A stretch of DNA of 64,000 bases from Escherichia coli (lineage in GTDB: Bacteria > Pseudomonadota > Gammaproteobacteria > Enterobacterales > Enterobacteriaceae): the NCBI RefSeq assembly GCF_017348835.2, contig NZ_CP071375.1. One strand, written 5' to 3'. Position 1 is the stretch's first letter, and each line of letters starts with the position of its first letter. The position numbers are program-made. Of the stretch, positions 6,001-21,000 are shown one piece after another.

Positions 6001-9000
6001 CTGATCAAGGGTTATCAGGAAGAAGAACAGGAGAGCTATCCCGCCAGAGCAGTAACCCTCCTGTAAATACGTTACTTCATTTTCACCTTTGCGGTGACCA
6101 ATAACGCCGTCAGCAGCATCAATGTGCCGGACAACATCAACGGCGAAGTCAGACCAATATTATCCAGCGCATAACCGCCGATTGCCGCGCCACAGGTATT
6201 AGCAAGCTGAATAACCGCCACCTGAATAGACCCGGCTTTTTCTGCCTGATCGGCCAGTGAGCGGGTGATCCACGTTGACCAGCCGACAGGAACCAATGCA
6301 AAAGTCAGCCCCCAGATAATCGCCACGCCGGTCGCAACGATTTTATCGCTTCCCCACAACGTCAGCACCAACGCACTCACAGCCAGTATTAACGGCGCGC
6401 CTGCTAAGGCCAGTTTTACCGAACGTTTAAGAATGAACGACGAAAGCGAAGTACCGATAAAGCTGGCGATACCAAAACTTAACAGCACCAGCGTTAAGCC
6501 ATCCACACCGAATCCCGCCAGGTTCATATACACCGGACGAATATATGTGAAGAAAGCAAACTGTCCGGCGAAAGACATGAAGATGGCGATCATCCCTGCC
6601 ATCACACCCGGACGTTGTAATAAGCGAAAAGTATTTTGTTTCTGATGCGAGGGTTCGCCTGGCAGTGAAGGCAATGATTTGATAATCCAGAAAATACACA
6701 GCACGCCCATCACCGCCGCCGCATTAAAGACATTGCGCCAACCGATAAGCTCGCCTAAAAAACTGCCCAACGGCGCGGCAATCACCAGCGCAATAGAAAC
6801 CGCGCCGAAGATCACCGACAGCGCCTTCGGCACCGTACGCGGCGGCACCAGACGCATGGTCAGCGACGCCGACATCGCCCAGAACCCGCCCAGCGCCAGC
6901 CCCAGACAGGCACGACCGATTAAAAGCAAACTGAATGAGTTAGCAAAGGAAACCAGCAAACAGGAGAGCGTCAGCAAAACGGCAAATAAAATAACAACGT
7001 AGCGGCGGTCAGTGGCCTGAATTGTCTGGGTAATAAACAAACTGGCAAACATTGCCACAAAGGCGGTCACGGTCACCGATTGCCCGGCAACCCCTTCCGA
7101 AATGCCTAAATCCTGGGCCATTGGCGTTAACAAACTGACGGGCAAAAACTCAACGATAATCAGACAGGCGACGCAAAACGCCACCGAGAAAACGGCTGAC
7201 CAGTTCGGTCGGGTGATGGCATCCGCGCCGCGGTTTTCGGCAATAAATTCACTCATGGTGTTACCCGTGGCATGTTTCAGGGGAAAAGCCGACCACTTTA
7301 ACATTGAAATGTGTGACGCATTTAACGTTTTTGCAACTTTTACGGTGTTGTGGGAAAAGTTCGAGGCTGCTCGAAGAAATAAAAATCATAGGGCAAGCTG
7401 ATATGCATTTTCGCGATTGGGTTGGGGTATTGCACTTGGTGATATACTTTAATAACAGGACCTCAACGATATGCGCGTGTTTAAAACCAAATGGTTTGCA
7501 AGGGAAGCCAGGTCTCATGCAATAACAGATGAAGAGTTGTGCCGGGCCATTTTAGAAACGGAGCAAGGTAAAGCTGATGCACTTGGTGGTGGCGTTTTTA
7601 AAAAGCGCCTTCACCAAAATCGTGAGCGTGCAATTATTCTGGCAAAAGGGGGAAGCAATTGGTTTTACACGTTTTTATATGCAAAACAGGATATGTCGAA
7701 CATCAATAGTCAGGAACTGGCTGGGTTTCGTGAACTTGCAAAGCATTATGCCTTCCTGACGAAAGCCCAGCTAACAGCAATGGTTAACACTAAAGAACTG
7801 ACAGAGATCTGCTATGACTGCAAAAACTAAATTTAAAAGTCCTGCATTTGAGGCTATTCACAGCGCAGCGGCTGGATTGTCCAGCGTCGATGCTATTTCT
7901 GCCGAAACAATGCGTACTTTTGACAAAGCCTGCCTGACCAACGTGCAAGACTTACAACCTGTTGAGATAAAAGCACTGCGGGAAAAATTAAAAGTGAGTC
8001 AGCCCGTCTTCGCTCACTATCTCAATACCAGCGTTTCAACTGTACAAAAATGGGAAAGTGGCGCTAAACGCCCCAATGGCATTTCATTAAAACTGCTCAG
8101 CATTGTGCAAAAATACGGGCTGGAGGTGCTGCTGTAAATAGAACGTAGATAATACGTTCACCTACTGTCAGTTCCGATACCGGACGCGGCATGAACGTCT
8201 TATCCACCCGACAGGTCAGGCGCGGTCTGTAGGCTGATAAGACGAAGCGGTTTTAATGCAGCCAGTGAACGCCCTCGGCAGGCTGAAAGAACGCGTTATA
8301 GCGCATCTGAAAAGCATTAATATCCTGCATTTCAGGTTCGGTTTCGCGCAGAAAACCCAGCGCCAGCCTGACCTGAGCATCGGTAATCGGCGCGGCAAGG
8401 CGGGCTTTTTGTAAAATCCGATGCCATTGCAGCAGGTTCTGTTCGCTACCATCGACAATGACAATTTGCCAGATGAGCAACACCTGCGCGGCGTTTTGCA
8501 GGTGCGACTCATCCGGACGATGCAAATAACGTAAAAATTCGTCACCAGCTGACTTTCCCATTTGATCGACCATCGACTCCACGGGTACGACATCGATATT
8601 CAGCCGATCGCTGAGACGGCGAATCGCTTTTCTGGCCCCGGATGTCAGCACCCGAAAACCAACCACAAACACTACCGCCAGCGTGGCGAGCATTATCCAG
8701 ATCATGAGTTCTCCTGCGTAATCAGAACTCATGATATCTGGAAACCCTCGCCAGTTACTAATCCACCAGAATAATCTTGAGTGCAAACAGAGCTGCGACC
8801 ACCACCACACACAGGTTCAGATCGCGCCAGCGCCCGGTGCACACTTTCATGATGCAGTACGACATAAAGCCGAGTGCAATCCCTTCGGTGATCGAGAAAG
8901 TAAAGGGCATCATCACCGTGGTAATAAACGCAGGCACCGATTCGGTAAAATCATCCCAGTTAACGCGCGCCAGGCTCGAAGTCATCAGCACGCCAACAAA

Positions 9001-18000: not shown

Positions 18001-21000
18001 CATTGCCCGCTACTCTGATAATTCCGATAACAGTGTTTACAATAAAACTGACGATCTCACGACCATTTACGCCAGTTTTGAAGGTAGTCATAAATTTACC
18101 CAGCAGGCGCAAATCGAGTATTTACTGGCCTTCCATGATTACGACAACAGTTCTATTAAGAGTGATAACCGCAAAAACTATGGCGTAATTGTCCGTCCTA
18201 TGTATTTCTGGAATGACGTTCACTCCACCTGGCTTGAGGCGGGTTATCAACGGGTTGATTACGATAAAGGTGGAGATAATTCCGGCTGGAAGCTGACGCT
18301 GTCACAGAACATTTCTATTGCGATGGGCCCGGAATTCCGCCCAATGCTACGTTTCTACATGACGGGCGGACAAGTTGATAATGACCGGACTGCACGCGTC
18401 AACGGTACAAAAGAGGAAACGCTTGACGACTTTAACCTTGGTGCGATGTGGGAAGCCTGGTTCTGACAGACCACTCACATTGAGTTAATGCAACCAAAAC
18501 ACGCCTTCTTCTGGCTGGAAGAGGGCGTTATAGCGCATTTGGAAGGCATTAATCTCCTGCCTATCTGGCTCTAACTCACGGAGAAAACCCAGCGCCTGAC
18601 GGACCTGGGCATCCGTGATCGGCGCAGCAAGACGCGCTTTTTGCAACAACCGATGCCAACGTAACAGGTTCTGCTCACTACCATCGACAATCACAATTTG
18701 CCAGATAAGTAACACCTGAGCAGCATTTTGCAGATGAGATTCATCCGGGCGATGCAAATAATACAAAAACTCTTTACCAGGCATTTTACCCATCTGATCG
18801 ATCATCGATTCTACGGGTACAACATCAATATTAAGTCGTTCGCTTAAACGGCGAATCGCCCGTCGGGTGCCTGACGTCAGAACCCGAAAACCAACCACAA
18901 ACACCACCACGACGGTGGCAAGCATTATCCAGATCATGCGTTCTCCTGCGCATCAACTTTTGATGATATCTGGAAAACTCCCCCTGCCGTTAATCTGGTC
19001 AAATTGAATAAAAAAAGCCCGGCGTCATGCCGGGCAAAAGTCACCAGTTACGTTTATGCCACTGTCAACTGCTGAATTTTTTTCTCGCGGCGGATTTTGC
19101 GTTCTTCCATCACCGCCACTATCGCCATCAGGCAGATACAACCAATCGCGGCGATATCAAGTGCGGCGAAGGTGCCTGCCCAGCCGGTAAGGCCGAATAC
19201 CGGCGTCCCATCGGCAATCATTCCCAGACCTAACTTGGCAAAGCTGTCGCCAATCAGGTAAGCAAAGGTGCCTTTAATACCATCGGCAGCACCAATCGCT
19301 TTTTTAGGTACAAAACCAACAGCAGCCACACCAATCAACAATTGCGGGCCAAAGACCAGGAAACCCAACGCAAAGAGAGAAGCCAGATAGATATATTCGT
19401 TGCTGGCATGTTGATACACACCGAGCGTGGCGATAATCAGCGCCAGCGCGATGCAGGCCACCAGGCCACGGCGACCGTTCGCCAGGTCAGAGAGCCAGCC
19501 CCACAGCAACGTACCGACCAGCGCACCAGCTTCAAACAGCGTAAAGCCCTGAATCGCCACCGCTTTAGAGAGTTTCAGTTCCTGGAACGCGTATACGGTT
19601 GACCACTGGTCGATACCAATACGTACCACATAGAGGAAAATGTTGGCGAAGCACAGCAGCCAGATCACTTTGTTTTTCAGCACATACTCAACAAAGATCT
19701 GCCACTTGGTCATATCGGTAGATTCTGTCTCTTTGTCCTCTTCGCTGATCTCCTCGCCGAACAGTTCTTCAGCTTTGCCGAGGCCATAAGATTCCGGGGA
19801 GTCGCTGCCGTAACGCAGGCCGATAAAACCGACAATCAGCGCGATAATCGACGGGAAGATAAACATGCCGATGACATGGCCATCGAACAGGTAATTTGCG
19901 CCGAACAGCGCCACACCTGCTGCGCCTGCACCGCCAAGGTTGTGAGAAATGTTCCAGAAACCGAGGAAGGTCCCGCGCTTACGACGCGGCGTCCATTTGG
20001 TGATGGTGGAGTAACTGCACGAACCGCCGGTGCTCTGGAAAAAGCCGCTTAAGGCGTAGAAGGCAATCATCAGGAACAGGCTAACCGAGCCGCTGCCCAT
20101 ACTGGCGCTGAAGCCCAGCATACAAATGGCAGACAGGATAAGCATGAACGGCAGGAATTGTTTGGTGTTTTTGCCGTCAGCGTAGTAGGAAACCAGCGTT
20201 TTACCCACGCCATAAGTGATGGAGAAGCCCAGGCCGATCATCCCCAGCTGCGTCATGCTCAACCCGTAGGTCGAAATCATATCGTTCTGCGCGATGTTAA
20301 AGTTCTTGCGAATCAGGTACATCGTCAGGTAGCCGATAAAGACCACCAGGTAGGATTGCATGAACGGTTTGAACCACATTTTGCGCCGCACTTCGAGCGG
20401 AAGGTCCAGGGTCGGCTTGCGAACCTGGTTTAGGAAAGCCAGCATGGGTTACTCCTGAAATGAATACCTGCGTGAGGCATGCATTGTAAAAATCAGCAGC
20501 AAATCAGGCCTGAAATAGCGTCCAGGCAAAACCTGGAAAATTTCTTAGTTTTGCCGGATATGAAGTGAAAAGGTGAGATGCATCACGCTTCGCGCGGTGC
20601 CTGGGCGTTCAAAAAGGGCAGTAACAGCAGTGCGGAAATCCCGGCGGCGATAGAGATAACCACAAAAAATCCGCACCAGTGCCAGGTATCGAGTACTTTC
20701 GCCAGTGGCCAACCAGCAAGCGACGCCCCCAGATAAGCAAACAAGCCGACAAACCCCGTCGCCGCCCCTGCCGCCTCTTTGTGGGAACACTCTGCCGCCG
20801 CCATGCCGATTAACATCTGCGGGCCAAAGACAAAAAAACCAATGGTGAAGAAGCAGGTTGCCTGCATCACGTAGCTGGCAAATGGCATCAGCCACAGCGA
20901 GCCGACTGAAAGCAAAATTCCGGCGGCGAAAATCAAATTCATCGGCCCACGGTTGCCGTTAAACAATTTGTCCGAGCCCCAACCGGCTACCAGCGCACCG

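Follow-up and report, generated by a model that had tools for sequence, protein, structure and literature searches.

We analysed a 64,000-nucleotide stretch of Escherichia coli DNA (the window) that carries two yicN genes, one downstream of adeQ (yicN1, copy 1) and one next to uhpT (yicN2, copy 2), and the features that bear on their history are the following:

8253..8705, (-) strand: yicN1, resident 150-aa DUF1198/YicN gene lying downstream of adeQ (ORF, Pfam)
8706..8757, (-) strand: yicN1 leader, from the adeQ stop codon to the ATG, including conserved block TTTCCAGATATCAT; the start codon is buried in a predicted hairpin
12029..12033, no strand: left junction between the adeD stop and internal yicS sequence (three-way alignment)
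12034..12228, (+) strand: 5'-truncated yicS pseudogene of 64 codons, native left flank of the operon (NCBIfam)
12264..13220, (-) strand: LacI-family regulator of the island (Pfam LacI and Peripla_BP_3; annotation)
13512-13826, (+) strand: PTS lactose/cellobiose-family IIB (Pfam above gathering score)
13839-15170, (+) strand: PTS lactose/cellobiose-family IIC (Pfam above gathering score; TIGR00410)
15191-16588, (+) strand: GH1 glycosidase (Pfam above gathering score)
16585-16887, (+) strand: PTS lactose/cellobiose-family IIA (Pfam above gathering score)
17087..18466, (+) strand: LamB-family carbohydrate porin, convergent with yicN2 (Pfam LamB, 250 bits)
18485..18937, (-) strand: yicN2, putatively xenologous DUF1198/YicN gene, intact, native right flank of the operon (ORF, Pfam, tree)
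18938..19006, (-) strand: yicN2 leader (conserved block 18938-18982) and ~25 nt of unplaced sequence
19007..19053, (-) strand: core uhpT intrinsic terminator, hairpin 19017-19035 plus T-run (terminator scan)

The two YicN proteins align without gaps at 130/150 identical residues (87%; BLASTP E=2e-90) and their coding DNA is 79.6% identical, which bears out the initial annotation in describing two highly similar 150-aa copies. Its placement of copy 2 between the porin gene and uhpT also holds, with 18 nt to the porin stop codon (18466) and 116 nt from the copy 2 ATG to the stop codon of uhpT (19054). So does the similarity that it noted around the start codons. Specifically, a pairwise alignment of the copy regions, as it had proposed, joins the coding sequences and a leader block and nothing further upstream; the DNA likeness reaches ~45 nt upstream of the ATG (TTTCCAGATATCAT ... 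GCAGGAGAAC[T/G]CATGATCTGG) and then ends. Both proteins cover positions 1-143 of the Pfam profile DUF1198 (PF06711), at 241.2 bits for YicN1 and 242.6 bits for YicN2 against a gathering cut-off of 25 bits, and both begin with one membrane helix at the N-terminus and continue into a compact helical domain, the arrangement of the solved member 5TF3. This related known system, YPO2564 of Yersinia pestis, is itself a protein of unknown function and was the sole strong match, so a function for YicN could not be drawn from the fold. Both copies share family, 150-aa length and architecture with the E. coli K-12 gene yicN (b3663). Copy 1 represents the K-12 type and is annotated as yicN / WP_001295241.1 in PE164 and in K-12-like genomes, whereas copy 2 differs from the K-12 gene by 13% in protein and 20% in DNA and adjoins uhpT. 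A literature search for DUF1198, yicN duplication or an adeD-uhpT island found no reports.

Copy 2 is part of an insert of ~6.97 kb (about 12032-19006) whose ends abut the adeD stop codon on one side and the uhpT terminator on the other, with zero target bases lost. The PTS operon profiles (PF02255, PF02302, PF02378 and PF00232) and the LacI family all score over their cut-offs, and the genes conform to the Lac-family PTS operon type in having IIA, IIB, IIC and a GH1 enzyme under one regulator. The IIC reaches 367 bits against the subfamily profile TIGR00410 (cut-off 236). An equivalog-level substrate call failed, with the IIC at 367 bits against the cellobiose profile TIGR00359 (cut-off 434) and the GH1 protein below the cut-offs of the GH1 equivalog profiles. 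Since its genes encode a porin, a lactose/cellobiose-family PTS and a GH1 enzyme, the operon should carry out beta-glycoside import and hydrolysis under a predicted LacI-type repressor. GH1 genes within PTS operons usually code for phospho-beta-glycosidases, and we infer that the island GH1 enzyme is probably one of these. E. coli has other accessory or cryptic beta-glucoside systems that vary among strains, namely bgl, asc, chb and bgc. These resemble the island in combining a PTS permease with a phospho-beta-glycosidase (putative in the island) and sometimes a LamB-like porin, but the island differs from them in its LacI-type regulator and its split lactose/cellobiose-family IIA, IIB and IIC. 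Other E. coli genes labelled 'carbohydrate porin' are only ~75% identical to the island porin. The known picture of PTS systems and of YicN function is unchanged by this case.

The opposite edge of the insert is formed by the truncated yicS, which matches the NCBIfam profile YicS_fam at 96 bits (cut-off 45) over positions 33-96 of 96 and which PGAP labels 'YicS family protein, missing N-terminus'. Its protein is 98% identical to that of the full-length yicS of L019, a divergent Escherichia genome, and only 89% identical to that of the usual-place E. coli yicS (taken from L002). There is no integrase-like ORF or transposase in the insert, no tRNA in 5000-23000 and no direct or inverted repeat pair at the island boundaries, and a self-mobile genomic island and a mobile-element origin were rejected on these grounds. 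Base composition (~47% GC versus 50-55% in the flanks) was too weak to be used as evidence for an island.

The distribution of copy 2 among 5,426 complete E. coli genomes is narrow, with a copy at least 95% identical to it in only 26. A blastn search returned 5,431 yicN-like places across 5,405 genomes, so that the extra places number exactly 26. K-12-like genomes have one yicN and an adeD-uhpT gap of 45 bp. Copy 2 and its 66-69 nt of upstream DNA are missing from ~99.5% of the complete genomes, and where present copy 2 always accompanies the porin side of the insert. This supports the suggestion in the initial annotation that copy 2 is cargo of the island. Two observations had been named there as contrary to this suggestion, a copy 2 that is not flanked by island-specific sequence and the presence of both copies in K-12-like genomes; in fact copy 2 is so flanked and K-12-like genomes hold copy 1 alone. 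Loss of yicN1 from the IS1-rearranged strain 14EC033 was considered and dismissed, as the place counts imply that both copies are still there.

The initial annotation had also offered a segmental duplication, which is not supported by the divergence of the copies. Specifically, yicN1 and yicN2 differ by a dS of 1.19 (~1.2) and a dN of 0.093 (dN/dS 0.08), which is a genus-level depth, and dS between E. coli and E. albertii is 0.63, about half of this value; datings from these figures are only rough because a dS above 1 nears saturation. In the tree, and by distances at codon positions 1+2, YicN2 is on a deep branch as a separate genus-level lineage, equidistant from four genera that include Escherichia, Salmonella and Citrobacter, while yicN1 clusters with yicN of E. 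albertii and E. whittamii. YicN2 falls within the Escherichia clade in 9/300 bootstraps and outside of it in 291/300. The phylogeny that had been proposed as a check therefore puts copy 2 outside Escherichia yicN, grouping with no yicN of that genus. With a sister relationship in 9/300 bootstraps and a dS of 1.19 the copies are not recent in-paralogs, and pairs like yicN1/yicN2 should not be annotated as paralogs.

The same LacI-PTS-GH1-porin operon is found between yicS and yicN in C. portucalensis, Citrobacter spp., Lelliottia, Huaxiibacter, Kosakonia, Superficieibacter and others, and also in two divergent Escherichia genomes, L080, which has a full yicS and a segment 98% identical to the island, and L019, whose segment is 95.3% identical. 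Gene order and orientation at the native yicS-lacI-PTS-GH1-porin-nepI-yicN locus (C. portucalensis, Citrobacter sp. MGH106, Lelliottia, Kosakonia) are as in the island, with protein identities to it of 84-95% in Citrobacter and 77-94% in Lelliottia and Kosakonia. The block in the window differs in that it has no nepI, has a truncated yicS, and has been added beside the resident yicS-nepI-yicN and not in its place. The ends of the island, a truncated yicS and yicN2, are thus the native flanks of the operon, so that an alternative yicS-yicN neighbourhood would have been added 3.3 kb from the resident one. The truncated yicS, which the initial annotation had missed, shows the island to be, on gene order and identity, an apparently displaced allelic yicS-yicN locus. 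We consider it likely that yicN2 is a xenolog that arrived in the PTS island, and that the island is a ~7-kb piece, not self-mobile, of a diverged haplotype that we call B. The island would carry its own old, diverged yicN because it is a displaced version of the neighbouring chromosomal segment. An apparent duplicate pair can in this way consist of diverged alleles of a single locus that have come to lie next to each other, and an operon lost from the yicS-yicN interval in typical E. coli would have returned 3.3 kb away with its original flanking genes as a footprint.

A local segmental or tandem duplication would instead start from an ancestral yicS-PTS-porin-yicN-adeQ-adeD-uhpT block, the copies of which diverged and lost different genes. 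Such an undisrupted order does exist in L019 and Citrobacter sp. MGH106, and a tandem duplication would yield a joint of the adeD-end|mid-yicS type. However, the yicN dS is then ~2x that of E. coli and E. albertii while L080 and L019 are no more than 2-5% away from the remainder of the island, and YicN2 falls outside the Escherichia clade as given above. This history also needs a precise deletion of the second adeQ-adeD that ends exactly at the adeD stop codon, as well as a replacement of the first copy by nepI-yicN1, and both island edges lie at one target site that is intact. We regard it as highly improbable.

With regard to the source of haplotype B, Citrobacter was rejected as donor since its DNA is only 80-82% identical to the island genes, which is as far as or further than for core genes, with a dS above 1.4; Salmonella was rejected since it has a different PTS at the site. 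No closer donor was found in 5.8 billion proteins or 100,044 species-representative genomes, and the 89%-95% identity range in these searches held only Escherichia carriers. The exact order yicS_B - operon - yicN2 - uhpT is found in none of the genomes examined as donors, and in the two natural haplotype-B genomes yicN and uhpT are separated by adeQ-adeD or by adeD. The yicN of L019 is a mosaic in which 69/75 informative sites before nt 400 are of yicN1 type and 12/12 at nt 414-445 are of yicN2 type, indicating homologous exchange between the two haplotypes.

The left junction was resolved in a three-way alignment of the window, a K-12-like genome and the L019 full-length yicS. The joint, GGAAT|GA(6-7)GACCG, changes the adeD stop codon from TAA to TGA and has a 3-nt AAT microhomology, the AAT being common to the end of adeD and to yicS_B. 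An illegitimate joint at short microhomology is thus present on one side of the island, at adeD|yicS. A microhomology of 3 nt is too short to carry statistical weight. The same junction, with an A-run of 6 or 7, is found in 9/10 other carriers checked and in the ectopic copy of LH50-c; in the tenth carrier, L083, the anchor search did not succeed. One junction in all carriers where it was found points to gain of the island in what was probably a single event, and the truncated yicS and extra yicN can be used as markers for this single origin.

At the right edge the insert ends at 19003-19006 and likeness to K-12-like genomes resumes at 19004-19007. The uhpT terminator segment at 19007..19053 is 100% identical to that of island-free genomes and constitutes the adeD/uhpT spacer of K-12-like genomes. 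The hairpin downstream of uhpT is conserved in Citrobacter, Cedecea, K. indica and Salmonella, and yicN is natively next to uhpT in Salmonella, many Citrobacter, K. indica and Cedecea. The terminator is therefore common to several genera, yet the searches found no yicN2-uhpT donor, and uhpT has no divergence patch. Neither uhpT nor adeD beside the island has a donor-like patch, both being uniformly ~2% from typical E. coli, which leaves the right-hand homologous crossover inferred rather than seen.

Our preferred reading, the displaced haplotype B locus, would begin with the order native to many Enterobacteriaceae, yicS - lacI - IIB - IIC - GH1 - IIA - porin - nepI - yicN - (adeQ - adeD) - uhpT, from which haplotype A, that of typical E. 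coli, would have lost the lacI-to-porin block and haplotype B would have lost nepI. A single recombination would then have joined the adeD end of haplotype A to the middle of the haplotype B yicS through the AAT microhomology, and on the other side the incoming DNA would have run through yicN2 to the uhpT terminator and been resolved by homology. With the two versions placed one after the other, the product would have yicN twice and yicS one and a half times. Homology-facilitated illegitimate recombination is known in E. coli at low frequency (PMC3240628). The island resembles it in having one illegitimate joint at a 3-nt microhomology and added foreign DNA without mobile-element functions, and differs in that the homologous anchor on the uhpT side is only inferred. 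A gene pair would result here because the incoming DNA was itself homologous to the neighbouring locus. As gene gain goes, the case is tidy but of an ordinary kind.

The sequence GGAATAATAAAAAAAG has two AAT triplets, and the insert falls precisely between these with the target intact, which also fits a two-ended illegitimate insertion without flanking homology. In this case a linear or circularised 7-kb haplotype B fragment, cut within yicS and just upstream of yicN2, would have entered AAT|AAT after adeD. The ~25 nt upstream of the yicN2 leader are unlike any known uhpT-yicN spacer, which is in keeping with such an insertion, as is the lack of a donor-type patch in uhpT. Against this, two independent illegitimate joints would be required at one site, and the native yicN-uhpT adjacency with the same terminator is common in relatives. 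Integration of a simple circle at AAT or GAAT was rejected as it predicts three AAT copies where two are present. We judge a two-ended insertion to be unlikely.

Under our preferred reading yicN2 would be a passenger, strongly constrained by purifying selection in the lineage it came from and now redundant with yicN1 and drifting. Variation among 11 carriers, in which yicN2 has 15 nonsynonymous and 12 synonymous segregating sites and a piN/piS of 0.41, shows what appears to be relaxed constraint on yicN2 in E. coli carriers. For comparison, yicN1 has a piN/piS of 0.10, and the remaining island genes range over 0-0.11. The difference from the other island genes has a Fisher p = 6e-4 and that from yicN1 alone is marginal (Fisher p = 0.07), based on 11 genomes that lack phylogenetic independence. 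The pair thus amounts to a small natural redundancy experiment, with strong purifying selection before transfer and relaxed selection after.

A functional reason for co-transfer was also weighed, whereby yicN2 is kept because the island IIC permease or porin needs its own YicN allele. YicN, a single-span protein, co-purifies with SecYEG (PMC8082313), yicN lies near the operon in many genera, and yicN2 is intact in 11/11 carriers examined and in the IS1-truncated remnant of 14EC033. However, nepI stands between yicN and the porin gene in most genera, the ectopic operon copy of LH50-c has no yicN2, and constraint is relaxed on yicN2 and not on the operon genes. The convergent orientation of yicN2 and the porin gene, which puts yicN2 outside of the operon, counts against co-transfer as well. 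There is a very slim chance that YicN acts as an allele-specific accessory in the biogenesis of the IIC permease or porin; the island would then require a yicN of its own, and the long-standing yicN-operon synteny would have a functional and not a historical basis. Retention of yicN2 for this reason is slightly less probable still.

Among the sequences examined there was no match to the ~25 nt that separate the yicN2 leader block from the uhpT terminator. A 3' remnant of adeQ upstream of yicN2 was considered and found unconvincing, GATTA alone being in common. The leader block itself is conserved in every adeQ-linked yicN of Escherichia and Citrobacter, and that of yicN2 is common to yicN1, L080 and Citrobacter. 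The predicted fold of the yicN1 leader RNA has -24.4 kcal/mol (z = -3.7), with 0/200 shuffles folding equally well, and the yicN2 leader RNA folds more weakly at -15.2 kcal/mol (z = -1.2).

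The window carries two yicN genes, the resident gene (yicN1) and a second copy beside uhpT (yicN2):

8253-8705, minus strand, yicN1, open reading frame of 150 residues
18485-18937, minus strand, yicN2, open reading frame of 150 residues

The two proteins align without gaps with 130 of 150 residues identical (E = 2e-90), their coding DNA is 79.6% identical, and both match DUF1198 over its full length (241 and 243 bits, cut-off 25). The DNA likeness extends ~45 nt 5' of the ATG and then stops. yicN2 is convergent with the porin gene, whose stop codon is 18 nt away, and its ATG is separated by 116 nt from the uhpT stop codon, with the uhpT terminator hairpin (19017-19035) between them. 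Thus the initial annotation, which had described two similar 150-residue yicN copies with similar start-codon surroundings, the second lying between the porin gene and uhpT, is correct throughout regarding this pair.

In most complete E. coli genomes the adeD-uhpT spacer is 45 bp and consists essentially of the uhpT terminator (flank matched in 5,410 of 5,426). The edges of the insert were set from an alignment of both junctions in the window with a K-12-like locus (L002). This placed the insertion point between the two AAT triplets of ...ACGGAAT|AATAAAAAAAGCCCGG..., with no target bases lost and with TGA in place of TAA as the adeD stop codon. The insert extends over ~12032-19006 (~6.97 kb), and region 12000-19100, the only one compared, is 100% identical to E. 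coli strain PE164. Its contents are, in order:

12034-12228, 5'-truncated yicS, matching positions 33-96 of 96 of the NCBIfam YicS_fam profile (96 bits, cut-off 45)
LacI-family regulator
lactose/cellobiose-family PTS IIB, IIC, GH1 glycosidase and IIA
LamB-family porin
yicN2, preceded by 66-69 nt of upstream DNA of its own

The insert encodes neither an integrase nor a transposase, region 5000-23000 has no tRNA, and no repeat pair was found at the insert boundaries. The gene content indicates an operon that would take up beta-glycosides via the porin, phosphorylate and import them through the PTS and hydrolyze them with the GH1 enzyme, probably a phospho-beta-glycosidase, under LacI-type repression; no equivalog-level assignment of substrate was reached for the operon parts. 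A perfect 15-nt inverted repeat (ATGTAGACGTGAAGC / GCTTCACGTCTACAT; 12223-12256) overlaps the stop codon of the yicS fragment and looks like a candidate bidirectional terminator between yicS and the LacI-family gene.

Regarding the origin of yicN2, the initial annotation had suggested either cargo of an inserted island or a segmental duplication. The two yicN genes differ by a dN of 0.093 and a dS of 1.19 (Nei-Gojobori), as compared to a resident yicN dS of 0.63 versus E. albertii and 0.43 versus E. whittamii. yicN2 is about equally far, 8.0-9.7% at codon positions 1+2, from Escherichia, Salmonella, Citrobacter and K. indica. A neighbour-joining protein tree groups YicN2 with the Escherichia clade in only 9 of 300 bootstraps, against 111 in which it is the sister of Salmonella and 133 in which it is basal to the group as a whole. 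The truncated yicS has 98% protein identity to yicS of the divergent Escherichia genome L019 and 77-79% DNA identity to Escherichia-type yicS. Finally, the island genes are 80-82% identical to Citrobacter DNA, with a dS of at least 1.4 save for the short IIB gene (0.8-0.9), a distance at least that of the core genes uhpT, uhpC, adeQ and adeD. Together these results indicate that yicN2 is not a segmental duplicate of yicN1. The cargo suggestion is the right one. Tandem duplication followed by differential loss is highly improbable, as it requires three events and is contradicted by the same divergence data. The long-term dN/dS of 0.08 shows that yicN2 was functional in the lineage from which it came. 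Nothing with 90-94% identity exists among 5.8 billion proteins, and the source lineage of the island is unsampled.

The shared upstream DNA contains a leader block, TTTCCAGATATCAT ... GCAGGAGAAC[T/G]CATGATCTGG, that is conserved in all adeQ-linked yicN genes of Escherichia and Citrobacter, with related forms (TATGAT or TATCAT after TTTCC or TTTGCC) in Lelliottia, Kosakonia and the C. freundii group. The block is an ancestral leader or promoter element and not the trace of a recent duplication. In the yicN1 leader (8706-8757) the block and the start region are predicted to pair into a hairpin of -24.4 kcal/mol (z = -3.7; none of 200 shuffles folded as well) that would sequester the start codon. 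The yicN2 leader (18938-18982) keeps the outer stem and has lost the inner stem (-15.2 kcal/mol, z = -1.2), so the two copies may differ in translational control.

What the island represents is evident from relatives of YicN, for which 75 loci from a scan of 100,044 species-representative genomes were mapped using the proteins of the window as tblastn queries. Citrobacter portucalensis, Citrobacter sp. MGH106 and Res13, Lelliottia and Huaxiibacter have the same operon between yicS and yicN, in the order yicS - lacI - IIB - IIC - GH1 - IIA - porin - nepI - yicN - (adeQ - adeD) - uhpT. The lacI-to-yicN order is also kept in Kosakonia, Superficieibacter and Enterobacter sp. Bisph1, with no yicS end detected in the flank examined. 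Yet other lineages derive from this order by deletion: the lacI-to-porin block is missing from K-12-type E. coli, only GH1 is left in Salmonella and the C. freundii group, and nepI is missing from the island type. The island type occupies the native site in two divergent Escherichia genomes, L080, which has full-length yicS, the operon and yicN2 and is 98.0% identical to the island over 6.95 kb, and L019, which is 95.3% identical over the same span. The island is thus an alternative version of the adjoining chromosomal segment, present as a copy whose ends were cut within yicS and immediately upstream of yicN. It is more informative to read it as an allelic copy of the adjacent locus that has been displaced, truncated yicS and yicN2 being its native flanks.

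Additional features of this neighbourhood were observed. L080 (9716-10000; Logan assembly ERR10934138) has the operon and yicN2 at the native site but adeQ is missing, its adeD is preceded by 285 nt that do not resemble the E. coli upstream region, and its yicN2 has lost 12 nt in frame (146 aa). Between nepI and yicN1 the window carries a RelE/ParE-family toxin gene (7471-7830) and an HTH antitoxin gene (7814-8137), a pair that is absent from L002, present in all 11 island carriers examined, and found at this position also in other Escherichia lineages, K. indica, C. amalonaticus and Salmonella.

L019 (SCPM-O-B-8794) has one yicN gene (5086-5535), and this gene is a mosaic. It is yicN1-type to nt 399 (69 of the 75 informative sites up to there) and yicN2-type starting at nt 414 (12 of 12 informative sites in nt 414-445, and downstream DNA likewise). 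This chimera is direct evidence for homologous crossover within yicN between the K-12-like and island haplotypes. Such crossovers explain how different Escherichia lineages can have the operon at one site or the other.

Of 5,426 complete E. coli genomes, 24 contain the full insert at 98.3-100% identity, two further genomes keep only an IS1-truncated porin gene and yicN2, and in one, LH50-c, the operon lies elsewhere. A sensitive blastn search with yicN2 gave 5,431 places in 5,405 genomes, exactly 26 extra, with a copy at least 95% identical in 26 genomes, a best match of at most 90% in every other genome, and no intermediate copies in E. coli. Thus carriers have two copies and all others have one. 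Gene order is identical in 11 of 11 carriers examined, and the left junction GGAAT|GA(6-7)GACCG is shared by the window and 9 of the 10 other carriers (the anchor search gave no result in L083). The ectopic LH50-c copy has the same left junction after 183 nt of adeD. This common junction indicates that the island traces to a single founding event.

The LH50-c copy (NZ_CP100500.1, 6817-13436) comprises the adeD fragment, truncated yicS, lacI, the PTS genes and GH1 at 98-100% identity to the window, adjoins xylA, GH43 and MFS genes, and has another porin allele (82.6% DNA identity) and no yicN2; its joined adeD and yicS fragments indicate that the founding junction moved to a second site. In 14EC033 (4288-6545) the porin gene is cut by IS1 and fused to truncated tnaA, leaving partial porin-yicN2-uhpT; the blastn place counts imply that yicN1 lies elsewhere in this genome, indicating rearrangement and not loss.

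All carriers in which the junction was found share one illegitimate joint, from the end of adeD to mid-yicS, with AAT microhomology. Resolution of the other end was probably homologous, at the uhpT terminator or past it, and this is supported by yicN lying directly downstream of the terminator in Salmonella, many Citrobacter, K. indica and Cedecea. The whole process would then be homology-facilitated illegitimate recombination, which has been shown to take place in E. coli, at low frequency (PMC3240628). On the uhpT side, yicN2 adjoins uhpT in no sampled genome besides carriers, the ~25 nt that separate the yicN2 leader block from the terminator have no match in any sequence examined, and uhpT shows only a uniform ~2% divergence from typical E. 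coli. These three points leave some room for an insertion that was illegitimate at both ends, which we consider unlikely. No report on this yicN pair or island was found in the searchable literature; its parts are already labelled by PGAP.

We also analyzed segregating sites among carriers.

Segregating sites in 11 carriers (nonsynonymous:synonymous; piN/piS)
yicN2, 15:12; 0.41
yicN1, 5:14; 0.10
other island genes, 36:131 (pooled); 0.00-0.11
uhpT, 3:50; 0.01

In this sample of only 11, phylogenetically related carriers, the yicN2 nonsynonymous:synonymous ratio is higher than that of the other island genes (Fisher's exact test, p = 6e-4) and of all ten neighbouring genes (p = 2e-5), with p = 0.07 versus yicN1 alone. 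The yicN2 reading frame is intact in 11 of 11 carriers and in the 14EC033 remnant. For these few, related genomes this fits a redundant passenger under relaxed, not absent, constraint.

Finally, a small insert separates uhpA from ilvN (~24166-27189), genes that directly adjoin in K-12-like genomes. It contains three minus-strand open reading frames (197, 258 and 435 aa) with no Pfam or PADLOC match, the first of which is a PGAP 'hypothetical protein' in all carriers with flanks reaching that far.
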